From the NCBI GenBank assembly GCA_947627895.1, contig CANQXV010000002.1, positions 1 through 47,204 of the forward strand: a stretch of DNA of 47,204 nt, written 5' to 3'. Shown in pieces: positions 6,599-47,204 of the stretch. This DNA is from an uncultured Bacilli bacterium (GTDB lineage Bacteria; Bacillota_I; Bacilli_A; RF39; UBA660). Position numbers and translations under genes: made by a program. A model generated the notes under the pieces. The model had not been told where the DNA came from. It saw nothing but the letters and a program-made list of their open reading frames with translations, and made no database searches. How positions within the stretch are numbered: the first letter of the stretch is position 1; each line of letters opens with the position of its first letter.

Positions 6599-6601
6599 TT
6601 T

Positions 6602-6835
6602 TCCTCCTTTAAATAAAAAAATTCATAAACTTTTAGTTAAGGACGAACTTTCTAATCCGCGGTACCACCTTAGTTTATGAATTAATCATACACTTTAAAT
6701 TATAAGGGATTTATCCCGATTTTACTCCCCAAGTGAAATTCATTTTATTAATATTTAAAACACTCTCACCACTTATGTTTTTCTCTTTATAAAGGGATTA
6801 ATAAAACTACTAAATCCTGGTTCTTGGTAATTTCG
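6602..6835 (-). promoter_or_regulatory. T-box leader (Phe-specific) with terminator/antiterminator
   Basis: The minus strand carries the T-box core AGGTGGTACCGCGG (6657-6670). Terminator arms TTCATAAACT/AGTTTATGAA (about 6672-6682 and 6621-6632) are followed by TTTTTTT. Candidate specifier UUC-A is at about 6734-6737. GGTGAGAG and AGAGA-like stem I elements are present. Confidence 0.85.
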
Positions 6836-6841
6836 TTATTT

Positions 6842-6870
6842 ATTCTATCAATTATTTAATAAATTTGCAA
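6842..6870 (-). promoter_or_regulatory. Sigma-A-type promoter of the pheST leader
   Basis: TTGCAA (6865-6870), 17 nt spacer, TAGAAT (6842-6847) on the minus strand. Confidence 0.6.
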
Positions 6871-6872
6871 CC

Positions 6873-7334
6873 TTAATCGCAAATTCCTTCTAAACGTTCT
6901 TGTTCATCTTTAAATTCTGAATATAATAATGTTTGATCATCGCCTTCAAAGTCTTTAGTTGCATCAATTTCATCACCAATAGCATATAATAACATTAATT
7001 CATCTTCATCTTTTTCCAAAATTTTACTTACATTGGTATTAAGCATGTCATTATAAGCCTCTCTACTTGTGAATTTATATTGACTTACATTTTGCATTGT
7101 TACAATTCTGTCATCTTCAACTTTCATATAAGTAATCATATTTAATGAATAACTAGCATCTGGTAAATCCATTTGCATTTCACATTTTTTATCATATTCT
7201 GAAAAACTATAATGTTCTTTCTTTTCTCCAGATTTACCCTTAATTACTAAAAAGTAAACTGCCAAAACAATAATTAAAATAACAACTATAATAATTAAAA
7301 TTATAGGTAACATTTTATTTTTAGTTTTTTCCAT
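6873..7334 (-). CDS. Single-pass membrane protein, last gene of the Tad-like operon
   Basis: N-terminal TM LPIILIIIVVILIIVLAVYFLVI followed by an acidic extracytoplasmic domain. SD AAAAGGAAGAG. No recognisable family. Confidence 0.6.
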   Translation of the reverse strand: MEKTKNKMLPIILIIIVVILIIVLAVYFLVIKGKSGEKKEHYSFSEYDKKCEMQMDLPDASYSLNMITYMKVEDDRIVTMQNVSQYKFTSREAYNDMLNTNVSKILEKDEDELMLLYAIGDEIDATKDFEGDDQTLLYSEFKDEQERLEGICD

Positions 7335-7389: not shown

Positions 7390-8376
7390 TTATTTTAAAT
7401 CAGGTAAATCTATCTCAAAATCATCAGTATCTTCTTCAAGCCTAATTATCTTTTCAACTTGACTTACTTCTTTTGGGTCTTCTATATTTTCTTTTTTTAT
7501 TTCTGGCAAATCGTTATTTGAGGTTTCCTCTATTATTTCTGAAGCCAAAGCTGGATTTATTACTAATTCAGATACATTATGTGGTTCTTCAATTACCCCA
7601 TTTTCTTTTGCCAGATTAGGTAAACTATCATTTGTTAAAGCATCCGGTATAGGCATCACTGGCCCTATTACTTTTCTTTTCGTATATGGCAAATATAATT
7701 GCTTATGTAATATTTTTCCTAAAGGACTATTAACATCAATTGCTGAAGTTTGTTCTCTTAATTTTCGAATTAAAGATTTTAAAAGAATAAATAAAGCAAT
7801 ACATAAAATTATTAGAAGCAATCCCGTTGAACTGGCAACCATTGCTTGTAATCTTCCTAAACCAGGTATTTTTAAAGCAACTTTACCAATAATACTATTA
7901 AAATTTACCCAGCCGGTGTCTTCGATTGGATTATAATCACCCTTAGTTTGATAACTATAGGTTCCATCTTCATTTTTAATAATCGAAACAATCCGGTGCG
8001 TAATAGTCATTCCTTTAGTTTCTGGACTATTTGAAATAAAGGTAATAACATCACCTATTTTTAAGTCCTCGGGATCATCTATACGTACATCAACAATTAC
8101 ATCATATACTTTAATATTCGGTGTCATACTTCCGCTCATAATGGAATATAGAGAATATTTAGGTTCAAAATTTCGACCAAAAGCGGAGAATAATTTAGTC
8201 GCTACAAAGTAATAAATAAGGAATGAAGCACATAATAAAAGCAACACAAATAAAGTCCAACTAATAATAGTTGAAATTAAATGAAGGATTTCTTTAGGAT
8301 TTGTTGCTGATTTTATGCTTTTTTCCACATTCCTACACTTCCCTATTGTATATTTATTATATCCAATAAAACCCAA
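7390..8376 (-). CDS. sipW: SipW/archaeal-ER-type signal peptidase I (S26B) with second TM and about 130 aa acidic C-terminal tail
   Basis: Motifs SGSMTP (catalytic Ser box), GDVITF, THRIV (His box) and TKGDYNP..D. TM before the catalytic domain and TM LLLIILCIALFILL after it. The ORF start is a TTG without SD. An in-frame GTG at about 8328 preceded by GGGAAG may be the real start. Confidence 0.8.
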   Translation of the reverse strand: MGFIGYNKYTIGKCRNVEKSIKSATNPKEILHLISTIISWTLFVLLLLCASFLIYYFVATKLFSAFGRNFEPKYSLYSIMSGSMTPNIKVYDVIVDVRIDDPEDLKIGDVITFISNSPETKGMTITHRIVSIIKNEDGTYSYQTKGDYNPIEDTGWVNFNSIIGKVALKIPGLGRLQAMVASSTGLLLIILCIALFILLKSLIRKLREQTSAIDVNSPLGKILHKQLYLPYTKRKVIGPVMPIPDALTNDSLPNLAKENGVIEEPHNVSELVINPALASEIIEETSNNDLPEIKKENIEDPKEVSQVEKIIRLEEDTDDFEIDLPDLK

Positions 8377-8421
8377 AATAGCAATTAGCTACATGAAAAA
8401 AAAGTCCATTTTTGAACTTTT

Positions 8422-9210
8422 TTAGAGACCCATTAGTTTTAAGACGGCGAAGATTAATAAAATCATTAATCCTAAACCAGTGGTGATTAACATACTCATA
8501 GTTTTACCTTCCATCTTTTCTAACCGGTTTTTATATTTAGTTTCCCGTGCTTTTTGTTGTAAAGATGATATAGTTCTTGAAAAAGCAAGAATTTGTTCTT
8601 GTTTTCTTTCTTGACGACCTAAACTTAACCGATATAGGAGCCGCATCATCCGCATAGAATCTCGAACTGGATATTTTCTGGCAAATTCCATATATGGCTC
8701 AATGGTATCATCCCCAGAATTAATAGCATCAATCATTTCTCTTAATCCATCTCTAAATATTTCGGGAGCATCGGCCATACTTTTACCAATTGCAACAGGT
8801 ACTGTATAATGTTGAATTAAAATTTCCAAATTTTTTAAATAATACGGTAACATAGCATCAATAGTATTAATATGTCTAGCATAGTATTTTTTTATATCAT
8901 TATAAGGCATCTTAAAAACAAAGAACCCCGCGACAAAAACTAATAATAATTTAACACTATTAAAATCTTTTAATAAAAGGAATAATACCAATACCATAAC
9001 AATTAAAGCATTTTTAATTCTTTTATTAAATAAGATGTCGGGATTTGTCCCATTACCATACTTAGCCCGCACATAAAAATCCCAGTCACTTTCTTTCATT
9101 TTCATGAAAATCATTTGGTTATCAATAATTAATTGATTAATATTAATTTGACCAGTATACGCCATAATGAAGAAAATGATAAAGGCTAAAATAATAATCT
9201 CTGGTTGCAT
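8422..9210 (-). CDS. TadC-like inner-membrane platform protein (T2SSF-like topology)
   Basis: N-terminal TMs, a central helical soluble domain of about 130 aa, and a C-terminal TM. TAATG coupling to the upstream paralogous-looking gene. Located directly after the CpaF-like ATPase. Confidence 0.55.
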   Translation of the reverse strand: MQPEIIILAFIIFFIMAYTGQININQLIIDNQMIFMKMKESDWDFYVRAKYGNGTNPDILFNKRIKNALIVMVLVLFLLLKDFNSVKLLLVFVAGFFVFKMPYNDIKKYYARHINTIDAMLPYYLKNLEILIQHYTVPVAIGKSMADAPEIFRDGLREMIDAINSGDDTIEPYMEFARKYPVRDSMRMMRLLYRLSLGRQERKQEQILAFSRTISSLQQKARETKYKNRLEKMEGKTMSMLITTGLGLMILLIFAVLKLMGL

Positions 9211-10115
9211 TATTCTACCCCCACATCTGCATTATAGTATTTTTCTCCCGATAGAAGAAACAATGCGTTTATAATTACAATGGCATGCAAAATGATTTGA
9301 ACATACCATATATCTAGCAAGGATATATAATTTTCTTCACCTAGTAAGAATCTTAAAACAACTACTAATAAAAATAACATTAAACCAAATTTAATAAACC
9401 GACCATGGAAGTTTTTTCGATCCATTTGATCGCGATAGACACCTTCAACTAAGGCATCAATATCCATAGACATATTTTCTAGAGATTCCCCTGAATCCTT
9501 GGCTCCTTCTTGAGTAATTTGTAAAAACAATTGATGCATATTTTTAACCATGTAATAAGGATATTTTTCATTAAAGTATTCTAGCGATGCATTAATCGTC
9601 CCATTTTGATAAGACATATCAATCATCTTTTTAACATCATCTAAAACAGGGTTTTCTAAAATTCCAGAATCTCGAACTCCTTCCAAAGATTTAACAAAAC
9701 TTTGAGTGGTATTAAATTCCATAATAACATTGGTCGTATAAGTTTGAATTTGTTCAAAAACATATTCACTATAAATTCTTTGACATCTTAAGAAAGCCAA
9801 ATATGGAATAAAGGAAATAGTAATTGCCGCATAAATAATGGCTATAATAATACTATAAAAGTAAAAATAACCAATTAAACCTGCAAAGCCCCCCATTAAG
9901 ATAGCTTGAACTAAATATTGCCGAGCATTATATTCTTGCCCTAATTCCACAGCTTTTTCCCGAACTGTTTTAAATGAATAAGGAGCATAACTATCATATA
10001 TTTTTCCAACACTTGAAATAATAAATTGATAAACATTTTCACCCGGATTTTTGCGATATAAAAAGACAAAAAGGGCTATAAATATTAAAATTATAAGTTC
10101 TGTGAATGTTTGCAT
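9210..10115 (-). CDS. TadB-like inner-membrane platform protein (T2SSF-like topology)
   Basis: Same architecture as 8422-9210 (N-terminal TMs, central helical domain, two C-terminal TMs). SD AGGAGGGA. 11 nt after the ATPase gene. Confidence 0.55.
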   Translation of the reverse strand: MQTFTELIILIFIALFVFLYRKNPGENVYQFIISSVGKIYDSYAPYSFKTVREKAVELGQEYNARQYLVQAILMGGFAGLIGYFYFYSIIIAIIYAAITISFIPYLAFLRCQRIYSEYVFEQIQTYTTNVIMEFNTTQSFVKSLEGVRDSGILENPVLDDVKKMIDMSYQNGTINASLEYFNEKYPYYMVKNMHQLFLQITQEGAKDSGESLENMSMDIDALVEGVYRDQMDRKNFHGRFIKFGLMLFLLVVVLRFLLGEENYISLLDIWYVQIILHAIVIINALFLLSGEKYYNADVGVE

Positions 10116-10126
10116 ATTAATCCCTC

Positions 10127-11242
10127 CTATAAACTTTCTATAGTCATATTTCCAGCTGGTATTTCTTCATCAGTTCCAATATCATCACTTGCTACAAAAT
10201 AATGTGGGTCTAATTCTACACCCTGAACACCTAAATACTCAATTAAATACTTACTTGGATTATGAAAATCAAAAGTACCATCTAATCTTTTTTTAAATAT
10301 AATATTAGAGCAAGCATGGTTTTTATCATCAACATAAAATTCTACAACTTCAATAATTTCTCTTTGAAACCGGCCTAATTCCTTACTCATATAACCTTTA
10401 ACATGCACCCCAATTTGAACATATCTATGAATGGATGTTAAAAATTGTTCAATATCAATGTTATTTTCTAGCAAACTATATAACCGCATAGGAATATTTA
10501 AGGCCCTATCAGAGTGAATAGTTGAAATAATATTGTGCCCAGATGAAATAGAGTTACGAACTGCCATAACAGCTTCAGCACTACGAACTTCGGATAGTAA
10601 AATCCATTTTGGGTTTTGCCGCATGCAAGTTACTAAAACATCCGTATAGGAAGCAATATTATTCGTTTTTACCGCAACGATATCACGATGGGGAAATATT
10701 TTATCTAAGTGTAATTCCAAAGTATCTTCAACTGTTATTATTTTTTCATTTTCTTTCGTATGACTCGCTAAATATTTTACCAGTTCCGTTTTCCCAGAAC
10801 CAGTTTCCCCACTGACAATAATATTGCAGTGCCCTTCTACACATGTCATTAAAAAATCATGAAGATTTTCGGTAACGTATTGTTCATTTAATAATTTTTC
10901 TTTATTTAACCGGATTTTGGCAGGGGTTTTTCTGATAGTACAAGAAATTCCATTCGTAGCAATGGAATCATGGATAAAGTTAAGCCGTAATTCAGCAGAC
11001 TCAGCATCCAAAAAAGGATGAGCCATATTAAATGACTTACCCATTACGTTAGAACATTGAAAAGCCAGCTTTTCCATCAAAGCATTATTTATTTCTGGCC
11101 TTTCAACCCGATACACACCTTTATCAAGAGTTTTTAGATGAACTTGACCATTATTCGAATAAGAAATATCGGTTACATTATCATCTTCCAAAAACTCTTT
11201 TAAAGGCCCAAAATCAATTTGTGAAAATATGGTATCATTCAC
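10127..11242 (-). CDS. cpaF: CpaF/TadA/VirB11-family secretion ATPase (T2SSE superfamily)
   Basis: Walker A VSGETGSGKTE, Asp box ITVEDTLEL, Walker B WILLSEVR and His box TIHS in the canonical order and spacing. GTG start with SD AGAGGTGA. Confidence 0.85.
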   Translation of the reverse strand: MNDTIFSQIDFGPLKEFLEDDNVTDISYSNNGQVHLKTLDKGVYRVERPEINNALMEKLAFQCSNVMGKSFNMAHPFLDAESAELRLNFIHDSIATNGISCTIRKTPAKIRLNKEKLLNEQYVTENLHDFLMTCVEGHCNIIVSGETGSGKTELVKYLASHTKENEKIITVEDTLELHLDKIFPHRDIVAVKTNNIASYTDVLVTCMRQNPKWILLSEVRSAEAVMAVRNSISSGHNIISTIHSDRALNIPMRLYSLLENNIDIEQFLTSIHRYVQIGVHVKGYMSKELGRFQREIIEVVEFYVDDKNHACSNIIFKKRLDGTFDFHNPSKYLIEYLGVQGVELDPHYFVASDDIGTDEEIPAGNMTIESL

Positions 11243-11264
11243 AAATAGTCACCTCTTTTTTATT

Positions 11265-12032
11265 TTAATATGATACTTGTTCTGAACGAGATTGAATAAA
11301 TTCAACTAACCGCATACTACCAACGGATGTTTCCCCAGCAGCATCAGTATAATTCCGTCCTCTTGGAACTGGGAATAATTCAACTCCGCTAATATTTTTA
11401 GCACTTGTTAGCAATAAGTGTTGTTCATCAATTAAACCAAATATTAATAAAGCCGGAGTTCTAGTTGTGTTAGAATCAAACACATTTTGATTTTGACTAT
11501 CTTTAACCGCTAAAACCTTAGCGCTTTCAAGTAACTTACCTACTAATATTGTTCCATTATCATTTGCTCGCATATAGATATCAACATAACTTCCTGGATA
11601 AATAGAGTTACCAAAAGTAGTCTTATTATTAACATCTAATTGGAAAGGAGCATATCCCTCTGGTAAATCATCATAATCAGATCCTGGTAGATCTTCAAGT
11701 TTAACAACTTGGCTAGAATAAAATAATCCACCTTCAGGAATAGATGTACCAACATTAACATAGTAACCAATTAATTTGTTAGCATCAGTAATAATACTAA
11801 TATTATTTAAAAATTCACTACTAATTTCAATATACTTAATATCTTCTTTCGTTATTTGCGTTCTGGCTGTAATAGCGTGTTCCGCATAGGGTACTTTAAT
11901 TGGGCTAACCGCTTTATTAACTCTGTAATTATAAAATACCCATAGCACTATAACACCAGCCAATATACCAAGAATAGTTACCGTATTTTTATTAGCGATA
12001 AATTTTTTTATTGTATTGATTAAATTTCCCAT
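11265..12032 (-). CDS. cpaB: CpaB/RcpC-like pilus assembly protein (N-terminal TM plus SAF-like domain)
   Basis: TM VTILGILAGVIVLWVFY. SAF-like segment AITARTQITKEDI. C-terminal beta-rich region with AKVLAV...ALLIF, as in CpaB. Immediately upstream of the ATPase. Confidence 0.7.
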   Translation of the reverse strand: MGNLINTIKKFIANKNTVTILGILAGVIVLWVFYNYRVNKAVSPIKVPYAEHAITARTQITKEDIKYIEISSEFLNNISIITDANKLIGYYVNVGTSIPEGGLFYSSQVVKLEDLPGSDYDDLPEGYAPFQLDVNNKTTFGNSIYPGSYVDIYMRANDNGTILVGKLLESAKVLAVKDSQNQNVFDSNTTRTPALLIFGLIDEQHLLLTSAKNISGVELFPVPRGRNYTDAAGETSVGSMRLVEFIQSRSEQVSY

Positions 12033-12047
12033 TTTATTCTTCTCCTT

Positions 12048-13778
12048 CTATACAGCACTCCAGAAGTAATCACCAGCATTGCTAGTTACACATTTAATTC
12101 GTTGATGACATGAAGTAGGGTGATCACATGATTTATTAGTATCATTATCTTCGAAATGCCACCATTCACTTGAAATTGTTTTTAAACCAGCATTAACCAT
12201 ATAACTAGCAAGCTTTTTTGCAAAATCATTATTATTTTTCTTTGAAGCAGCAGCACTTAATTCATGCATATCGGTTGGCATTGTTGCACCTTTTATTGAT
12301 ATATCAACAGCACAACCCGTATTATGAGCAGAAGGACCAGTCGATAAGTACCACCCTAATGCATACGGATTCATCGCTGCTTGTACTTTGGTATTACCAT
12401 AATATAAACTATTATAAGCTTCATATAATTTTTGAGTTACACCCCTAGGCCGATATGCATCATATACAACTAAAGTATAACCATCATTTCGAGCACTTTG
12501 AGCGGCTTGTTTTAATTGTTTAGCAAATGAATACACTCCTATTGGCCGATAGTCATTTGAATATAATTTTTTATTTTTTATACTTGAAGGTGAGAAAGTT
12601 TCTCCTTTATAAGTCGTTTTATATTGACTACTATAAGTATTATATATATCAAACTCTACTAAACCTTTTAAATACTCTGACATATCAATAGCCGCATAAG
12701 TGTCGGTCCGCATCCAACCGCATTTTTCTTGACCATTACTAGTATATTTAACTGCCCACCATTCAATATTATTAGCGCCATTACGTGAGCCTAAAATTTC
12801 ATAAATATTTCCAGCTTTTATAGTATCAGTTGGGTTTTGAGTTGACCAGTCTTTATAAATTCCAACTCCTGCCATAACTGTACCATGAACACCTTCTAAG
12901 GTTCGAGATTGGATATTTTCTTCATCAGGAAGACATGATTGAGGAACATTTCCAGCTTTATTTGTTTTGAAACTTCCTGTTATTACAGGAGATACATTAC
13001 CAGCTTCATCCTTAACATAAGCCTTAAAATTATAACTAGTATCAGGACTTAAACCATTAAATGTAAATGTATTATTACTACTACTTTCATAATTAGAACC
13101 ATTGTCTTTACTAACAAAATATTCTGTAATTTTACTACTACCAGCCGTTTCAACAACATGAACGGTTATAGAACTATCTGTTACTTCTGTGCTTTCTATT
13201 TTATTAGCAGTTGGTCCTTCGGTACTAGGGTTAGTAACAGAAGGGTTTTCTGTCGTTGTCCCTTCGGTACCTGAACCAGGTGTCGTTGTACCTGGTTGAG
13301 TATTTTCTTCTGTTCCTGGAGTTGTTGTTCCACTACTACCAGAAGAAGGATTTTCATCCGTGATATTAGGATCTAAAACATTACCTTCTAAAATTGTATC
13401 GATTCTATTTACAATATCAAATGAGGTTGAATCACCTACAACAGTGAAACTTCCCGATTTTCCTTTTACCTCCACACTAGCCTTTGGTGGTGCTTCATAC
13501 ACATCATAGAAATTAATTGTATATGTCGTTGTTAAAGATGCATTTTCTGCGAATCTTCTAATGAAACTTTCAAAGAATTTTTCCTTATTTATTTTTATTT
13601 CGCCATATTGACGATAATAGGCGAAGTCTACGGCATCTACCATAGCTGCTTCGGTTAATTCTTTTACCAAGAAATAATCTTGTTGGTTATTAGTTGTAAC
13701 ACTTTGTACTAATAACATTATTACAACAATGAAAACACCTAATAATATTAACCAATAAGTCCAAAAAGCATTTTTCAC
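12048..13778 (-). CDS. Membrane-anchored multidomain protein: pilin-like N-terminus, Thr/Gly/Pro linker, FN3, SH3b-like, VanX-type M15 D-Ala-D-Ala peptidase
   Basis: TM WLILLGVFIVVIMLLV. Linker SSGSSGTTTPGTEENTQPGTTTPGSGTEGTTT. FN3 signature (ITVHV...LSPDTSYNFKAYVKDEAGNVS). SH3b-like segment (GNIYEILG...WWAVKY...GWM). M15 motifs YRP, SAHNTGCAVD and EWWHFE. Confidence 0.8.
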   Translation of the reverse strand: MKNAFWTYWLILLGVFIVVIMLLVQSVTTNNQQDYFLVKELTEAAMVDAVDFAYYRQYGEIKINKEKFFESFIRRFAENASLTTTYTINFYDVYEAPPKASVEVKGKSGSFTVVGDSTSFDIVNRIDTILEGNVLDPNITDENPSSGSSGTTTPGTEENTQPGTTTPGSGTEGTTTENPSVTNPSTEGPTANKIESTEVTDSSITVHVVETAGSSKITEYFVSKDNGSNYESSSNNTFTFNGLSPDTSYNFKAYVKDEAGNVSPVITGSFKTNKAGNVPQSCLPDEENIQSRTLEGVHGTVMAGVGIYKDWSTQNPTDTIKAGNIYEILGSRNGANNIEWWAVKYTSNGQEKCGWMRTDTYAAIDMSEYLKGLVEFDIYNTYSSQYKTTYKGETFSPSSIKNKKLYSNDYRPIGVYSFAKQLKQAAQSARNDGYTLVVYDAYRPRGVTQKLYEAYNSLYYGNTKVQAAMNPYALGWYLSTGPSAHNTGCAVDISIKGATMPTDMHELSAAASKKNNNDFAKKLASYMVNAGLKTISSEWWHFEDNDTNKSCDHPTSCHQRIKCVTSNAGDYFWSAV

Positions 13779-13796
13779 CTAAATGTCACTCCCTTT

Positions 13797-16700
13797 CTAT
13801 TTATATGATGGACCACCAATTACATTTTCATCATATCTATATTCTGTCCAAGGTTCCCAATAAGTACTACTTTGAACATTTTCATTTGATCTTTTTCCAG
13901 CTGGTACCCGACCGGATTTAATATGTTTAACAGCATCTGTTTTATCTATTAATTCATCAATAAATGTACTAAAACAGAACACATTTTCATGAACCCGATG
14001 TTCACTATCTTCATAATCATAACATTCAGTTGTAATGTTATTATATCCACCAACTTTTTGACTTTCTACTTCTTTATTGTAATCTAAGATAAAGTTTGTT
14101 GTATTAGGATCTAATTTAACCCTTAACTCTAAATGTGGATTATCCACTGAATCATCATAAATTGTTGTATTTGCCTCTTCAATATTAGTAATTGTTTCTT
14201 CAGCCTTTTCTCTAATTAATGAAAGTGAAGCAAGAGTTGAATTAATATTCCAGTTATAGCCATATTCTCGATCAACGGATTCGAAATTAGTTGGTGATAC
14301 CGGTTTAACATTAAATTGTAAATCACCTAAGTTATAAATACAGTTTACACATTCAATACCACAATCTGGGCATTCTTTCCAATAACAATACTCTCCTTCA
14401 CATTCGAAGTCACATGTTGGGCAATCTGAAGGGTTACATGTTGTGTAATAATGACATACATAATTACCATCCCATGATCCTTCACTAACACCTAGGGCAT
14501 TTGCCACACTAGAACTGACGTGATCACCATCGAAATCAACTAATCTACCTAAAGCAGCAGTATCATAAAATTCTCCTAAATCTTCAATATGCATTTTGAA
14601 AACTCCACCACCATAGGCATCAATTGAAAGTGGAAGACCACCATAAGTTGGATAATCTCCTACTGGTGAAAGTTGAACACCAGGACCAGTATAATCCTTA
14701 TTAGTTGTTATACCTCCACTGGCAGGACCACTTGATGAAACTTGATAAAATACTGTTGGTGTAATATATTCTTGTTCTACATCAAAATGTTGTTTTATAA
14801 ATTTAGCTTTTGATACTTGTTGCGTATCAGTTGTACATCCACTAGTTGTACATGTCGTATATTTGAAATCAGCGAACATTGTATCTATACTTGTCCAGCC
14901 TGTTGAACAATCATTATCACCAAATTGATTATTAACATTGCCTTCACAAGCTTGGATTTTTTGATCAATTGTTATATCATCCACTGGTACTAAATATTTA
15001 TCTTCATCTGATACCATATCATAATATTGTTGATCATATTCCCAATAAATTTTTGGATCAAAATTGAAATCGTTAGTCCAATCTTTTGTACATGAATTGT
15101 AATTTTTAATAATGTTTTCATATTTAGTTTTAGCAGAATCTAAATCAGATTTAGCAGATTCAATATCAGAATCAATTTCATCAGCCAAATCTTCTTTGCT
15201 ATCGGCTGGACCATAGCTAAAACTACCGGCAGCTGGTTCGGTTGAAACATAACCAGTTGTTCTATTAGAATCAGCAGTTTGGATTCCTGAATAAGTTCCT
15301 GATGTTGAATATTCCCATTTTAGGCATGAGCCTGTGGTATCTTCAACCTCTTTTTCTACACCATTTTCATCTTTTATTTTTATCGTAGGATATTCCGCAC
15401 AAGACTCATCAACTTCTCCATTGCTAGCAGCTGTAGCTTCTAAATAATCATTATAAGCATCAATAAATGCTTTTTGGGCATCAATTATATCGTTAATATA
15501 TTTTTCTTGATCTATTGATTTATCGGCTGTATTTGCAGAACCACGATAACAATCCATGCTTCCTTTAATCGTGGATTTTAATTTAAAATATCCACCACAA
15601 TTAATTTTATCTAATGCTTTATTTAATGAAATTTCCCGATAATCTTCTTTACAGAAGGTACCACAATATTCATTATTTACCCCACCAAGGTTTTCTTCTA
15701 ATTTATAAGAGTTACCAGCGTCATCTTTATTATTGATAACACATTTTTTAATATCTGTAGGAGCTGTTATAGAAGCCTTACCATCTTCTTCTTCAGAACA
15801 TACAGGAGTTTCTAAAGTAGTTTCGCAACTTAATCCTAAACATGCAATACCATTAATAGTGTATTGTAATTGCTTATCATTATTATCATTATTGCCCGCA
15901 ACGTAGTTATTAGGAACAACACCCAAATATCTTTGTGTACCTGATGATATATTATCATCTAATAAAGCGATTGAAACATCTGCAGTTTCTGGAACATAGT
16001 AATTTAAAACAATATTTGCATCACAATTTTCAGATTCTGTTTCATTTTTACTAAGAGTAATTTTTAATTTAACATTACCATTTTCATCCATGAATTTAGA
16101 AATATCTATTCTAGAAGTTAATTCTTTCCATTCACCATTTTCACTATATTCAACTTTTTCAATGGCTACACCATTTTTTTCACAATTATTGCACACAATA
16201 TCTGAACGGCCAATTTTTACATAGCCATCTTCATCTTTAGTTATTTTGAAATTAACAATCTTTTCTTCATGATTTCTATCAGCAGCTTGCCCATTAGTAA
16301 CATTAATACCAACTTCTGTATTATTACTTATACCACCATTATTTTTAAATTCATAAGCAGCATCAATACCCATTCTAATTAGATTTTTAGCTTGATCAAG
16401 CACGCTTCCGCCTGAAAAAGATGTCCCTTTTGATGGCTTTTTAACATTAACACCTATAGCAGATAATTTATCAGCATTTTCTTGGGCCATTTCATATCCT
16501 AAGTTCATAACAGCATACTTAGCAGCAACCATGTTTGCATCGCCACTATAATCGTTATCTTCAAGACCCATAATAGCATTATAATATGCTCTTACTGCAA
16601 TGTCTGTGGATACAATTAAAGTTTTACTATCACGTCTAGTTTTACCACCATTGGCTAAAATTGTATATAAACCATAATATTGAGCACGAAAATTAATATC

Positions 16701-17006
16701 TTTCGTAGTATCATTAAAGTTATATACTTGTGTAACCTTAACAGTTGTGCCTGGTTTATTATTACTATCAGCTGGGTCTACGCAGTACATTTTAATTTCT
16801 TTGTTGCCTGAGGTACCGTAATAGTTCCAAACATTATAATCTTGGCTACCAGCTTTTACACCTAAACCACTAGCTAAATTATTATGCGATTCCCAATGAA
16901 ACGTGTACTTATCGCCAACAGTATATGCAGCTTTTACACTATTAATTCCTACTCCTAAAGTAAGTGATGTTAAAATTAATAAGAATAAGATTTTTAATTT
17001 TCTCAT
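13797..17006 (-). CDS. Large secreted Cys-rich protein, unknown family
   Basis: Sec signal MRKLKILFLLILTSLTLGVGINSVKA/AY. No LPXTG and no C-terminal TM. Many Cys, including a dense CxxC module at about nt 14340-14465. ATGA overlap with the upstream gene. Confidence 0.75.
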   Translation of the reverse strand: MRKLKILFLLILTSLTLGVGINSVKAAYTVGDKYTFHWESHNNLASGLGVKAGSQDYNVWNYYGTSGNKEIKMYCVDPADSNNKPGTTVKVTQVYNFNDTTKDINFRAQYYGLYTILANGGKTRRDSKTLIVSTDIAVRAYYNAIMGLEDNDYSGDANMVAAKYAVMNLGYEMAQENADKLSAIGVNVKKPSKGTSFSGGSVLDQAKNLIRMGIDAAYEFKNNGGISNNTEVGINVTNGQAADRNHEEKIVNFKITKDEDGYVKIGRSDIVCNNCEKNGVAIEKVEYSENGEWKELTSRIDISKFMDENGNVKLKITLSKNETESENCDANIVLNYYVPETADVSIALLDDNISSGTQRYLGVVPNNYVAGNNDNNDKQLQYTINGIACLGLSCETTLETPVCSEEEDGKASITAPTDIKKCVINNKDDAGNSYKLEENLGGVNNEYCGTFCKEDYREISLNKALDKINCGGYFKLKSTIKGSMDCYRGSANTADKSIDQEKYINDIIDAQKAFIDAYNDYLEATAASNGEVDESCAEYPTIKIKDENGVEKEVEDTTGSCLKWEYSTSGTYSGIQTADSNRTTGYVSTEPAAGSFSYGPADSKEDLADEIDSDIESAKSDLDSAKTKYENIIKNYNSCTKDWTNDFNFDPKIYWEYDQQYYDMVSDEDKYLVPVDDITIDQKIQACEGNVNNQFGDNDCSTGWTSIDTMFADFKYTTCTTSGCTTDTQQVSKAKFIKQHFDVEQEYITPTVFYQVSSSGPASGGITTNKDYTGPGVQLSPVGDYPTYGGLPLSIDAYGGGVFKMHIEDLGEFYDTAALGRLVDFDGDHVSSSVANALGVSEGSWDGNYVCHYYTTCNPSDCPTCDFECEGEYCYWKECPDCGIECVNCIYNLGDLQFNVKPVSPTNFESVDREYGYNWNINSTLASLSLIREKAEETITNIEEANTTIYDDSVDNPHLELRVKLDPNTTNFILDYNKEVESQKVGGYNNITTECYDYEDSEHRVHENVFCFSTFIDELIDKTDAVKHIKSGRVPAGKRSNENVQSSTYWEPWTEYRYDENVIGGPSYK

Positions 17007-17764
17007 AAATCAAGACTCCTTTTTCTTTTAACTATCACAACTACTGCAACCCCCGCTACAATAACTAGAGCAGCTCCACCGCCAATAAAATAATATTTGT
17101 TATCAGCAATAAAGTCCATTATTCTTTTCCATAAACTATTGTCATATTCATTCGCATTGATGCCTTGATTCCTTTTGTTGGTTAAATATTCGGTTATTTG
17201 TTCTAAAAAATTTATTTGTTCAACATAATCGAACGTTACATATTTTTGACATAAATTAAATTCTGGAGCATCCGTACATAATGCATAATCATAATATTCA
17301 TTAAATCTTGGTAACTTCAGCGTTATCGTTCGCATTAATTCATTTGGACAACCGGTATTTTCACTAGTATAAACTTTAATTGTAAAGTTTGTTACTTGCT
17401 CCAAATTTCGCCAAGGAAACGTAATAATATCATCCGTACTATTACTATTATTATACCGAACCCTTTCCTTATCATAATCATTTGTTACTTCAATATAAAA
17501 TTTGTCCGTAATATTTGAAACCGAAATGTCAAAATAATTGACTTTAGGAGGATCTATCTCTGTTGTCTCATCACCTGCATCTGGAAATCCATATATACTT
17601 GGATCCAAATCTTCTTCCATTTCTTGATTCATTGCTCTTATATTGCCTGCTGCAGTTCTAAGTTCTGCTTGTTCCGAAGTTGAACATACACTTGCAGCCC
17701 CAACATTACTAACAAAAATCACACTAATCAAGAAAGCAAATATTACTTTTAGAAATCTTTGCAT
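17003..17764 (-). CDS. Type I membrane protein (signal peptide plus C-terminal TM anchor), first gene of the Tad-like operon
   Basis: Signal FLISVIFVSNVGA/AS. C-terminal TM GGGAALVIVAGVAVVVIV followed by KRKRS. SD AGGTGG. Confidence 0.7.
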   Translation of the reverse strand: MQRFLKVIFAFLISVIFVSNVGAASVCSTSEQAELRTAAGNIRAMNQEMEEDLDPSIYGFPDAGDETTEIDPPKVNYFDISVSNITDKFYIEVTNDYDKERVRYNNSNSTDDIITFPWRNLEQVTNFTIKVYTSENTGCPNELMRTITLKLPRFNEYYDYALCTDAPEFNLCQKYVTFDYVEQINFLEQITEYLTNKRNQGINANEYDNSLWKRIMDFIADNKYYFIGGGAALVIVAGVAVVVIVKRKRSLDL

Positions 17765-31517: not shown

Positions 31518-33596
31518 CTACCAAGATAATCGATAAGGATTTCCAAGTGTACCATCACCTGATGCAATCTCAGTGCTAGACTTTAGATAGAAGGTAGGAC
31601 GTACACAATGGTCAATGCTGTACACTGTCCAGTTATCAACTCGACCACCACTGTCAACGCGGAATGCATCGTACCAATTGTCAGTCCGCCGTGTAATTGT
31701 CCATTCATACAATCCCATATACATCCAATTGCTTGTCGATATATTATCTTGATTATAATTATATATTTCCGTTTGCCAATTCTCTGAACTTGTTGCATAT
31801 CCATAGTCACTTACATACATTAGTCCTATCTTAGCTGTTGTTTTATCGTCTACTTCTGTTGCACTTGCATTTGTAATTCCTCTATCTGGATTAACTATTT
31901 CATTTTTGTAAGAATCTACTGCTATTATATGATAATATACTTTATAATAATTATTACCGGCTGTTATCCATTCATGTTTTGTTATTTGATCTACTATTTT
32001 TTCTTTTTTACCGTCTGTAGTTCTTAAATACTCTAAAAATTTTGTATTTAAGTTGTATGTATTTAGTGTACTACCTTTCCATAAATTTGAATCATTATCA
32101 CTACTTGCCCAGTAGTATTTTGGAACTTGTTCTAGCTCTCCTTTATATGTTGATTCTGATGATTTAATATAGTTACTTTCAGGATTTCTTGCTCCGTCGA
32201 CTCCAAGTTGTCCTTCTGTCGCATAATCTGCTTTGATTAATTTCATTTCATAGTCATTAAATTTATTTTTAAATAATCCTATAATTCTATATAAATCATC
32301 ATTTGAACATTCGTCTTCACCTGTTTTATTATCTAAACATACATAATTATGTACATTTTCACTTGAACCGCTATATCTATATGACTCATCGTTTGCATCA
32401 ATTATTGATGATTCAGCATAGCCATCAGTTAATGCTTTTTGAAGAGCTTGTTTAAATGTATAAGGTGTTTGAGAGGTATCATAGGCTAATGTATAATGTT
32501 GTGGATTTGATGGATCGCAATAATGGCCTATAAAATATTCGTCATTATTACAATAAAATTTTATCAATCTGTTTTCACTTAATTCTGAAGAATCACTTGC
32601 ATATAATATTCCATATTCACTTTGATGATTAGGAGTTATTTGATAACCACCTATTATTTCAGTATCTTCGGTATTATCTAGTTGAGATGGTGCCTTTATT
32701 GTCCCATTATGGTGTATTAATGTATCTTCTTCGGAATCTACTAATAATTTAGTTATATTTTTTTCATATGCTGGTACATATTCTTCTTTTTGGATTATTA
32801 CTTTTCCACTTACACTCTTTCCTGTATTTATTTCTTGGTCAGTTGGTAAGTTTATAAATGTTAGTGTTATTTCCCATTCATCTTCTTTTGGATTTGGTTG
32901 ACTTCCATCTTCTGGAGCCGTTACTGCTATAGTACCTGTTTCATCGGTGCTTATCTTTATAATTCCACCTTTTTCGGTTATATCATATCCATTTAAAGTT
33001 CTAGTTTGTTCTCCTGATTCATCATTATATTTTATTTCTATTCCTTCTTTATAGTATGATTCTAAACTTGTTATATTTTTAATTTCTGTACCATTCTTTT
33101 TGACTGTTAGTATTAATTCGGGTATTCCTTCTGTATATGCTTCCTTTTCTTCAGAACTCAATGGTGCAAGTTTTACATTTCCATCTGTATCCTTATAACT
33201 TGAATACTCTAATTCATTTGTATCTATATGTAAGTATACATTATAAGTTTCGTTGGCTTCCCTCGTTGTACTATTTGCTTTTAATACTACTTTACCTGTT
33301 ACTCCATCTGCTATACTTTCAGCATTTTCTTTAAAGTTTGTCATTGTTGCATTTATGGTTATTGCTGATTCTGAATCATTATCAGTTATATGATTAGATG
33401 CATCAGTTACATTTTTATCTTCCATGCTAAATGTTAAGGAATCTGTTGTTCCGGTTTGAGCACTTACATCAATATGTTGTCCATCTCCAGTTTGAGCTTG
33501 AAAGTAAGCATAGGTGGCACCTGCTACTACTATTAATAATGTAAGTACTCCTATTATTAGTAATATTGTACTTTTTCTTTTATTTTGTTCTTTCAT
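31518..33596 (-). CDS. Large exported protein with SipW-cognate (TasA/CalY-type) signal peptide and conserved C-terminal VRP-motif domain
   Basis: N-terminus KRKSTILLIIGVLTLLIVVAGATYAYFQAQ resembles TasA GGGTWAAFND and CalY GGTFAYFSD. The C-terminus ...WTITRR...FRVDSGGRV...VRPTFYLKS...GDGTLGNPYRL resembles DUF6273-like modules. Confidence 0.7.
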   Translation of the reverse strand: MKEQNKRKSTILLIIGVLTLLIVVAGATYAYFQAQTGDGQHIDVSAQTGTTDSLTFSMEDKNVTDASNHITDNDSESAITINATMTNFKENAESIADGVTGKVVLKANSTTREANETYNVYLHIDTNELEYSSYKDTDGNVKLAPLSSEEKEAYTEGIPELILTVKKNGTEIKNITSLESYYKEGIEIKYNDESGEQTRTLNGYDITEKGGIIKISTDETGTIAVTAPEDGSQPNPKEDEWEITLTFINLPTDQEINTGKSVSGKVIIQKEEYVPAYEKNITKLLVDSEEDTLIHHNGTIKAPSQLDNTEDTEIIGGYQITPNHQSEYGILYASDSSELSENRLIKFYCNNDEYFIGHYCDPSNPQHYTLAYDTSQTPYTFKQALQKALTDGYAESSIIDANDESYRYSGSSENVHNYVCLDNKTGEDECSNDDLYRIIGLFKNKFNDYEMKLIKADYATEGQLGVDGARNPESNYIKSSESTYKGELEQVPKYYWASSDNDSNLWKGSTLNTYNLNTKFLEYLRTTDGKKEKIVDQITKHEWITAGNNYYKVYYHIIAVDSYKNEIVNPDRGITNASATEVDDKTTAKIGLMYVSDYGYATSSENWQTEIYNYNQDNISTSNWMYMGLYEWTITRRTDNWYDAFRVDSGGRVDNWTVYSIDHCVRPTFYLKSSTEIASGDGTLGNPYRLSW

Positions 33597-46308: not shown

Positions 46309-47204
46309 TCAATCAACGCATCTGCACGGAGAATTACCATAATCAAGATTAACACCTTGAACATCATAAATGTATTCGCTTTTTTTATTATCTGTTACTT
46401 TTACTTTAAATGAATATGGATTTCTACAATTATCCAAATTATTTATTGTTATTTTATTGCCAGTATAAGTTATTTCTATTTTTTTATCATATATATTACA
46501 ACTGCCACACGAGGTATCACATGAATTTTCAATTACAGAATATGTATACGGCTCTGTACCACCTTTTACTGAAACTGTAAGTACAGCATTACTCTCATCA
46601 GTGACAACTTGAATATCGGTTATTTCTAATGGCGCAGTCGTTGTAGTTAAACTTAATGTACTAACTTGGGAATATAATCCTTTACTATCTTTTATTCTTA
46701 TTTCTATTTTATATTGCGTTTGTTCACTTAAGTCCGTGAAGGTATGTGTTGGCGATGTTGTTTCTTCTTTTGTATCTATTTGTCCTTCGGCTACTCCTCC
46801 TGTTATGTGATATTCATATCCTGCTATTTCATTACTTCCCTTAATTGGACCTGTCAATGTTACTGTTATACTGTCTGGGCCCTCACTATGACTTACTTCT
46901 CCTACCTCTGGTAATTTATCTGTTGCTATGTTTGCCTCTGTTTCATATTCATTTGATTTAAATCCATATTCATCTACAGCATAGGCATATATTTTATAAT
47001 TTGTATTTTCATGTAATCCTGTAAATGTATATGTATTTTCATCCCATGGTTTCATTTCAACATCTTCTATTGATGCTGCCATAACAGGTCCAATTTCTTT
47101 TATTCCAAAATAGTATTTATCTATTTCCCTATTTCCTTTATCTTTTTCTAAGGTTATCGTTATACTATCATTTGTTACTTCACTTGTGGCTGTTTTAATA
47201 TGTG
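46309..47204 (-). CDS. FN3-repeat surface protein with Cys-rich C-terminal domain, 5' end outside the window
   Basis: The reading frame stays open from 47082 to the window edge (HIKTATSEVTNDSITITLEKDKGNREIDKYYFGIKEIGPV before the listed Met). Repeated FN3 signatures (YTFTGLHENTNYKIYAYAVDEYG and HTFTDLSEQTQYKIEIRIKD). Confidence 0.75.
   Translation of the reverse strand, partial: HIKTATSEVTNDSITITLEKDKGNREIDKYYFGIKEIGPVMAASIEDVEMKPWDENTYTFTGLHENTNYKIYAYAVDEYGFKSNEYETEANIATDKLPEVGEVSHSEGPDSITVTLTGPIKGSNEIAGYEYHITGGVAEGQIDTKEETTSPTHTFTDLSEQTQYKIEIRIKDSKGLYSQVSTLSLTTTTAPLEITDIQVVTDESNAVLTVSVKGGTEPYTYSVIENSCDTSCGSCNIYDKKIEITYTGNKITINNLDNCRNPYSFKVKVTDNKKSEYIYDVQGVNLDYGNSPCRCVD

Follow-up and report, generated by a model that had tools for sequence, protein, structure and literature searches.

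The stretch of DNA analysed here (the window) comprises 47,204 nucleotides of contig CANQXV010000002.1 from an uncultured Bacilli bacterium (assembly GCA_947627895.1). Its minus strand carries a gene for a SipW/Sec11-type signal peptidase, which lies beside a Tad-like cluster of secretion genes. It is likely that the product is an active peptidase working beside a LepB-type enzyme, that its clients are an exported family of at least 20 paralogues, that its position next to the Tad-like cluster is incidental, and that its long tail presents a short peptide (DDLPxLK) to a cytoplasmic partner. A first-pass annotation of the same DNA had placed the peptidase within the Tad-like machinery, and this placement was not upheld when related genomes were compared.

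The gene and the parts of its product were assigned as follows. Residue numbers refer to the longest form of 328 aa unless stated otherwise, and the AlphaFold2 (AF2) model was made on a 312-aa form.

7390..8328, minus strand: SipW/Sec11-type signal peptidase I gene (TIGR02228 score; start from the alignment with locus L004 and from homologue N-termini)
8203..8277, minus strand: first transmembrane segment (TM1), N-in membrane anchor, approximately residues 34-58 (hydropathy; AF2 helix 11-50 of the 312-aa form, pLDDT above 90)
7867..8157, minus strand: extracytoplasmic catalytic beta domain (AF2 residues 58-154 of the 312-aa form, pLDDT 90-98)
8128-8130, 7996-7998 and 7936-7938, minus strand: catalytic codons for Ser83, His127 and Asp147, respectively
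7747..7830, minus strand: second transmembrane segment (TM2), an out-to-in helix followed by basic residues (hydropathy; AF2 helix 167-194 of the 312-aa form)
7393..7764, minus strand: disordered cytoplasmic tail of approximately 124 residues with a juxtamembrane LYLPY motif and three DLPxhK-like repeats (composition; AF2 pLDDT 44-67)
7393..7425, minus strand: conserved peptide at the C-terminus, DDFEIDLPDLK, in which [DE][LIM]PxL[KR]-COOH comes after an acidic run (homologue tail ends)

The open reading frame (ORF) occupied 7390-8376 on the minus strand (stop codon 7390-7392), with the 328-aa form starting at TTG 8376 and carrying SGSMTP at residue 81, THRIV at 126 and TKGDYNP at 144. The first-pass annotation had assigned this core to the endoplasmic reticulum (ER)/archaeal Ser-His type, and the assignment was confirmed. 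The protein scored 89.6 bits against TIGR02228 sigpep_I_arch (cut-off 51.85, E 1.9e-25; 91.3 bits in the whole-genome scan), which is far beyond chance, and only 20.9 bits against the bacterial P-type model TIGR02227. The closest solved structures were human SEC11A and SEC11C, to which the Ser of SGSM, the His of HR and the Asp of KGD all aligned. Ser83, His127 and Asp147 were invariant in alignments of 20 and 74 homologues, and the catalytic Ser and His were accordingly conserved. Two hydrophobic helices were predicted around the catalytic domain, with basic residues before TM1 and after TM2. The protein is assigned, from its sequence, to the ER/archaeal-type (S26B) Ser-His-Asp signal peptidases I with intact catalytic residues, and it is predicted to be active in cleavage. 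The equivalog model for Bacillus SipW, NF046067, was not passed (82 bits, cut-off 190); by these scores the enzyme is SipW-like in kind and not an orthologue of Bacillus SipW.

The window genome (G000) comprised 1.18 Mb in 93 contigs and was 93% complete. One gene only matched TIGR02228. A LepB/P-type signal peptidase was also present (contig C1, C1:4105-4533; 125.6 bits, cut-off 47), and the SipW-type enzyme is not the organism's only signal peptidase.

The genome was scanned with TIGR04088, the model of the SipW-cognate signal, and eight matches were returned. These included a 692 aa protein of the window, which had been proposed as a substrate on first pass and, with its TIGR04088 match and family N-terminus, remains a plausible one. 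By motif, 18 ORFs with near-identical N-termini were found (MKExNKRKxLxLLIIGVLTLLIVVxGATYAFFQAQxG...TGTTDxLTF), and a family profile built from these 18 ORFs matched 27 sites in the genome. The 20 readable family ORFs amounted to 11,350 aa, or 2.9% of the assembly. This copy count of at least 20 is a minimum because 9 of the 21 listed sites lay at contig ends. The assembly is broken by the repeated family N-termini. Related genomes contained up to approximately 31 family sites. In the window, family members were placed as follows.

31518..33596, minus strand: 692 aa family member with predicted cleavage at GATYA↓YFQAQ (TIGR04088 match; family N-termini)
33507-33596, minus strand: signal peptide of the 692 aa protein
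46309..47202, minus strand: C-terminal part of a second family member, 5'-open and cut by the contig end (41-47% identity)

The last of these was 41-47% identical to residues ~250-440 of family members on contigs C56, C12 and C66. Each family N-terminus consisted of a K/R-rich segment and a hydrophobic helix, followed by G-A-T-Y-A↓F/Y-F-Q-A-Q. Residues Ala27, Thr28, Ala30, Phe32, Ala34 and Gln35 showed little or no variation, whether within the genome or among 66 diverse homologues. With the predicted cut after Ala30, positions P3, P2, P1 and P2' would be occupied by Thr, an aromatic residue, Ala and Phe, respectively, as in TasA. In TasA, Trp at P2 and Phe at P2' hinder LepB, and SipW processes the protein (PMC10269814). 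The position of the family cut is deduced from these conserved residues.

Beyond the signal, no Pfam or NCBIfam model matched the family. An AF2 model of residues 1-290 of the 692 aa protein contained a helix at 2-35 followed by a beta-sandwich (pLDDT 85.6). A TasA-like fold was considered for the substrates and rejected, since Foldseek against the PDB gave weak beta-sandwich matches only, with no TasA among them, and Pfam and NCBIfam gave nothing. The analogy with TasA therefore covers the signal peptide only, because no TasA-like character was detected in the N-domain. Variable C-terminal modules, including FN3, GLUG and others, followed the N-domain. TIGR04088 is hardly mentioned in the literature.

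Linkage between peptidase and family was assessed in 151 genomes of the same order (in practice one family, 86 genera), using the peptidase, the T2SSE ATPase of the Tad-like cluster and the substrate N-terminus as queries. Peptidase and family were found together in 101 genomes, the peptidase only in 20, the family only in five and neither in 25 (odds ratio 25, Fisher p 8e-12, not corrected for phylogeny). Most of the SipW-type matches in the 20 family-less genomes are weak and probably belong to a second SipW clade. A wider locus survey was made of the best 80 peptidase loci from species-representative genomes, with neighbours collected within 6 kb. A cognate-signal gene was present at 27 of the 80 loci, and at 25 of these 27 it lay upstream of the peptidase gene on the same strand. 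In at least eight other genera, one to four small family members (215-290 aa) stood directly upstream of sipW on the same strand. In the window genome the nearest family member lay 23 kb from the peptidase gene, and no operon was shared.

A further protein of 446-562 aa was seen between the small family members and sipW in other genera (L041 4588-5928, L042 3339-4949, L044 4022-5710). It had an internal hydrophobic stretch at two of the three loci and a C-terminus resembling the substrate domain (...GKSFNAKIEIE) at all three. It may be a membrane-bound base or chaperone.

The Tad-like cluster lies directly before the peptidase gene in the direction of transcription.

8422..17764, minus strand: Tad-like cluster encoding a 253 aa protein, a 1069 aa protein, a DUF5411-FN3-M15 protein, a CpaB-like protein, the T2SSE ATPase (10127-11242) and two polytopic membrane proteins (Pfam, NCBIfam)

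The ATPase matched T2SSE at 103.5 bits. Matches of the CpaB-like protein to the CpaB/RcpC models were below cut-offs (26.2 vs 28.8; 40.3 vs 71), and the two polytopic proteins (8422-10115), termed TadB/TadC-like, gave no match to Pfam T2SSF even at E<=10. The TadB/TadC label of these two proteins rests on gene position only. That the peptidase gene follows a TadC-like gene is correct as to gene order; the TadC identity is putative. The cluster order was conserved across the family without sipW (253 aa protein, 1069 aa protein, a variable gene, one or two copies of the CpaB-like gene, ATPase, two membrane proteins; tblastn). The ATPase was 65-89% identical in 127 of the 151 genomes and is a core gene, in a machine that is vertically inherited; the peptidase was 40-56% identical within the genus.

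The peptidase gene comes directly after the last cluster gene (8422-9210) and shares its direction. Peptidase and ATPase lay on different contigs in all eight other species of the genus. Tad genes were found within 6 kb of the peptidase at two of the 80 loci only, in the two nearest relatives, which are rabbit-gut metagenome-assembled genomes with peptidases 74% and 67% identical to that of the window. Related loci had other neighbours. The pheST genes were found at 16 of the 80, and at the loci inspected the peptidase gene was usually one or two genes upstream of pheS-pheT. At most loci of the genus, genes for a LysM protein and a membrane protein of ~535 aa preceded the peptidase gene, either directly or within a few kb. 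In species G122 (L019 5395-7360), tadC was followed by genes for two TadE-like small proteins and a 329 aa protein. The same three genes were present in the window genome on another contig with their own upstream region (C1:53919-55889), and its LysM and 535 aa genes lay at the end of contig C33, 81 nt from it.

From this comparison of gene orders, a rearrangement in the small clade of this species broke the Tad operon after tadC and moved its proximal half next to sipW, because the TadE-like genes follow tadC in relatives but sit on C1 here, with the LysM and 535 aa genes on C33. Since it was this lineage-specific rearrangement that placed the Tad half beside sipW, the adjacency of tadC and sipW is recent and incidental and not a functional embedding. 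The genetic coupling of the peptidase to the ATPase and platform, claimed on first pass, is not supported, the adjacency being absent from 8/8 other species of the genus and from 78 of the 80 loci.

The distribution of the genes gave a similar result. Of the 151 genomes, 106 had both peptidase and ATPase, 15 the peptidase only, 21 the ATPase only and nine neither (odds ratio 3, p 0.026, not corrected for phylogeny). A survey of the co-occurrence of SipW-like and cpaF-like genes had been proposed in the first-pass annotation, and these counts revealed no tight coupling. The association of the substrate family with the ATPase was also weak (odds ratio 2.3, p 0.09). Peptidase and ATPase are gained and lost nearly independently. 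With the operon broken after tadC and the phyletic patterns near-independent, the claim that substrate maturation is part of the Tad machine is not supported either. A physiological link between the two may exist, though nothing in the comparative data requires it.

The gap of 93 nt between the tadC-like gene and the peptidase gene contained the following elements.

8398..8423, minus strand: terminator-like A-tract, hairpin and T-tract right after the stop codon of the tadC-like gene (-8.4 kcal/mol, z -2.9)
8356..8384, minus strand: sigma-70-like promoter TTGCTA-17-TATAAT (10/12 consensus matches)
8338-8343, minus strand: ribosome-binding site GGGAAG (conserved in L004)

The hairpin had a counterpart in the nearest relative, L004, with a different stem sequence (-8.0 kcal/mol, z -2.8). 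Both promoter hexamers and GGGAAG were kept in L004 although the bases around them differ. TTG 8376 was missing from L004, where the equivalent of GTG 8328 was conserved and called as the start, and other homologues began at the equivalent point. The peptidase therefore probably starts at GTG 8328 (312 aa) and not at TTG 8376, as judged from these alignments. The gene probably has its own transcription start, in view of the hairpin and the conserved promoter-like site ahead of it. The description of the gene as embedded in a secretion-ATPase operon holds for physical adjacency and shared direction, and probably does not hold for the transcription unit.

A rival explanation makes the peptidase a working part of the Tad-like machine, maturing the 1069 aa, 253 aa and perhaps the 692 aa proteins, with processing coupled to ATP-driven export or assembly. 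It can draw on the co-directional position of the gene, 45-93 nt from the last cluster gene in three related species, on an aromatic residue at P2' in the 1069 aa protein (13797-17006; VKA↓AY), and on Clostridium perfringens, in which secretion of BsaC and BsaA from the SipW operon partly depends on type IV pilus genes (PMC11580942). The signals of the proposed substrates tell against it. Both the 253 aa and the 1069 aa proteins had ordinary AxA signal peptides that varied between species and gave no TIGR04088 match, and orthologues of the 1069 aa protein had AGF or FNV after the site. The Tad-cluster proteins were ruled out as SipW-type substrates on these grounds, and the 1069 aa protein, suggested on first pass as a substrate, lacks the SipW-cognate motif. 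The explanation is further opposed by the absence of the adjacency from nearly all other loci, the TadE-like genes that occupy the position after tadC in relatives, the 21 genomes with ATPase and without SipW and the 15 with the reverse, the hairpin and conserved promoter between the genes, and the weak association of family and ATPase. We consider it unlikely. The junction itself might be an assembly artefact in a chimeric contig, as could be argued from the fragmented assembly (93 contigs) and from the ancestral upstream neighbours of sipW (LysM, 535 aa) ending 81 nt from the end of C33. This junction recurred in L004/L047 (a 73 kb contig) and in L046 (peptidases 67% and 74% identical), where the sequence has diverged and the hairpin is compensated. 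The junction is real because three independent assemblies have it, and a chimera is very improbable indeed.

It could also be argued that the peptidase is a general, redundant second signal peptidase and that the family N-terminus is an uncleaved anchor or is cut by LepB. Genome-reduced bacteria sometimes retain odd paralogues, most family members score under the TIGR04088 cut-off, and the peptidase gene is at least 23 kb from any family member in the genome. This account has a poor chance of being right when set against the strong co-occurrence of peptidase and family, the same-strand operons of family members followed by sipW in at least eight other genera, and the match to a TasA-type site, poor for LepB, in the invariant residues at P3 (Thr), P2 (aromatic), P1 (Ala) and P2' (Phe). 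Several observations nevertheless weigh against a dedicated SipW-type peptidase serving the family and unconnected with the Tad machine. One family member only reached the TIGR04088 cut-off (19.1 vs 19 bits), with the others below it. The substrate N-domain was not detectably TasA-like, with no Foldseek match against the PDB at E<1e-3 and none to TasA, and the family N-terminus may stay in place as a membrane anchor. The odds ratio of 25 is uncorrected for phylogeny, and the 20 genomes with a SipW-type match had no detected family member. Read-through from the Tad cluster into sipW may occur in this species, and the partial dependence of C. perfringens SipW substrates on type IV pilus genes (PMC11580942) means that a functional link is not absurd.

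The dedicated peptidase remains the favoured reading, and its working can be set out as follows. After Sec insertion, the peptidase would cut family members after Ala30. Because the residues of the TasA-type site hinder LepB, the P3/P2/P1/P2' pattern would be poor for LepB-type enzymes and a separate, dedicated peptidase would be needed. Cleavage would release the conserved beta-sandwich N-domain carrying the variable C-terminal modules. The peptidase gene would be expressed from its own promoter, having been linked ancestrally to pheS-pheT in the genus and to small family members in other genera, until the rearrangement at clade level broke the Tad-like operon after tadC and set the proximal half beside sipW. 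The tail would serve as a disordered linker that presents DDLPxLK to a cytoplasmic partner, by analogy with the C-terminus of Bacillus subtilis SipW.

The long acidic tail after TM2, as described on first pass, was confirmed for this protein. It comprised 124 residues with 26 D+E, 14 K+R and 11 P (net charge -12). Where TM2 could be placed, in 96 homologues, the tail was 40 aa or longer in 94 (median 94). The tails varied in length, sequence and net charge, and many were net basic. The tail ends were more constant. Exactly at the terminus, 55 of the 96 homologues had hPxh[KR] after an acidic run (typically DDLPKLK or IDLPDLK), and most of the remainder had the same motif 1-12 residues from the end. 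LYLPY was common to near relatives in an alignment of 20 sequences. As far as these alignments tell, the conserved feature of the tail is a short linear C-terminal motif (DDLPxLK) on a disordered linker and not its acidity.

In a genome-wide comparison, no other protein of this genome ended in the tail peptide. The organism's FtsZ (G000 C63:1147-2208) ends in EYEIPPFLRSDNNF and the peptidase in DDFEIDLPDLK. The two ends are loosely alike, each having [DE][IL]Px(h)L[KR] behind an acidic run, with that of the peptidase one residue shorter and without an aromatic residue. A motif common to other proteins of the genome was rejected, as only the peptidase ends in it and the likeness to FtsZ is loose.

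For B. subtilis SipW, the 20 C-terminal cytoplasmic residues are described as having a regulatory role apart from peptidase activity (PMC8767453, citing Terra 2012), and that account of the role names no binding partner (PMC8767453). There is a slight, though not negligible, chance of a more specific role for the long tail in the present clade. It would make the enzymes bifunctional, the acidic run and DLPxLK docking the peptidase to a divisome protein, the Sec motor or the Tad-like ATPase and so confining maturation of the multi-copy surface repertoire to one site or machine. The layout of the tail peptide resembles that of the C-terminal peptide of FtsZ (here ending EYEIPPFLR).

Among known systems, the tapA-sipW-tasA operon of B. 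subtilis offers the closest comparison. SipW there is likewise an S26B peptidase with a Ser-His-Asp triad (S47/H87/D106; PMC8767453) and two transmembrane segments, and it acts beside P-type peptidases as an enzyme dedicated to TasA and TapA. The client signal of TasA has the same P3 Thr, P2 aromatic, P1 Ala and P2' Phe, and the cytoplasmic C-terminus of SipW has a possible second role. The tail of the present enzyme, in contrast, is ~120 aa and not ~20 aa long and ends in a conserved peptide of its own. The clients, at least 20 of them, are dispersed; most are large proteins of several domains, and no likeness to TasA was detected in their N-domain. In this genome the gene lies outside any client operon, and the NF046067 equivalog score is 82 against 190 bits. 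The system works like SipW-TasA and differs from it in the lack of Bacillus orthology, in the substrate fold, in the expansion and dispersal of the family in the genus, and in the long tail.

The sipW-bsaA-bsaB-bsaC locus of C. perfringens is alike in having a SipW-type peptidase for matrix or surface proteins in a monoderm with type IV filament machinery, and its products partly need type IV pilus genes for secretion (Obana 2020; Kivimaki 2025 preprint, PMC11580942). It thus sets a precedent for a functional link between such a peptidase and filament machinery. The link there is functional and not genomic, whereas here the adjacency is recent and the phyletic patterns are near-independent; the substrate fold also differs. 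With SEC11A/C and archaeal Sec11 the enzyme shares the aligned SGSM, HR and KGD motifs and the same catalytic beta core. Unlike these, it is without partner subunits, and its chain continues into a second TM helix and a long tail in the cytoplasm. The CoCoPALM loci of Bacillota, for which a one-paragraph description is given, link signal-peptidase-family 'pilus assembly' genes to McrBC-like GTPases (Bell et al. 2024, PMC11090510). The present locus likewise has a signal-peptidase-family gene near a cytoplasmic NTPase in Bacillota; no McrB/McrC homologue was found beside the peptidase or its orthologues at the loci inspected.

Tad systems have a dedicated protease of their own, the A24 aspartic prepilin peptidase, and type I signal peptidases are not known among their components. 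The present cluster resembles Tad/Flp systems (TadV/CpaA) in its CpaF/VirB11-like ATPase, its weak CpaB-like protein and its two polytopic membrane proteins. It differs in that the A24 peptidase of the genome is encoded elsewhere, on contig C59, with classical pilins, and that the signal peptidase is not conserved with the cluster. The A24 match scored 43.7 bits, above its cut-off, in the region C59:2177-4513. Seven classical type IV pilin genes (KGFTLVELL) were scattered over contigs C15, C16, C26, C27, C47, C54 and C64. SipW as a stand-in for a missing prepilin peptidase was ruled out by the A24 peptidase and these seven pilins. The A24 gene adjoins that of a probable PilC-like membrane protein, as judged from sequence ends only (C59:2177-4513), and a second, weak T2SSE-like match was seen on C17. 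No paper linking SipW with Tad systems was found in a literature search.

One further feature was recorded on the downstream side of the peptidase gene.

6873..7334, minus strand: downstream neighbour of the peptidase gene, encoding an N-terminally anchored protein of 153 aa (position not conserved)

This protein was missing between sipW and pheS in L004, and paralogues were found on contigs C88, C3 (two) and C6. Rfam at gathering thresholds gave no match in the window, and no T-box was found in the 274-nt gap (6599-6872) upstream of pheS.

The organisms are uncultured gut Bacilli with genomes of ~1.2 Mb, whose records are labelled Bacilli, Tenericutes, 'Mycoplasma sp. CAG:776' or Ca. Ventrenecus. 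A misleading lead, according to which a Tad system would have a type I signal peptidase built into it, is removed by this analysis, and the interest of the locus lies in the multi-copy substrate family and the tail motif and not in Tad coupling. If the docking role of the tail were true, large SipW-cleaved proteins would be pushed through the wall by a conserved Tad-like apparatus, as proposed for C. perfringens, and in this case in wall-bearing, genome-reduced gut bacteria. Through its conserved C-terminal peptide, the enzyme offers a concrete and testable way of finding the binding partner of a SipW cytoplasmic tail. Approximately 3% of the assembly of the window genome is given to one exported family with a common TasA-type motif, on which a dedicated Sec11-like peptidase probably acts. 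Its members, in which a new beta-sandwich N-domain is joined to interchangeable C-terminal modules, have the look of a variable surface repertoire, and such a repertoire is relevant to the host and phage interactions of this common, uncultured gut lineage.

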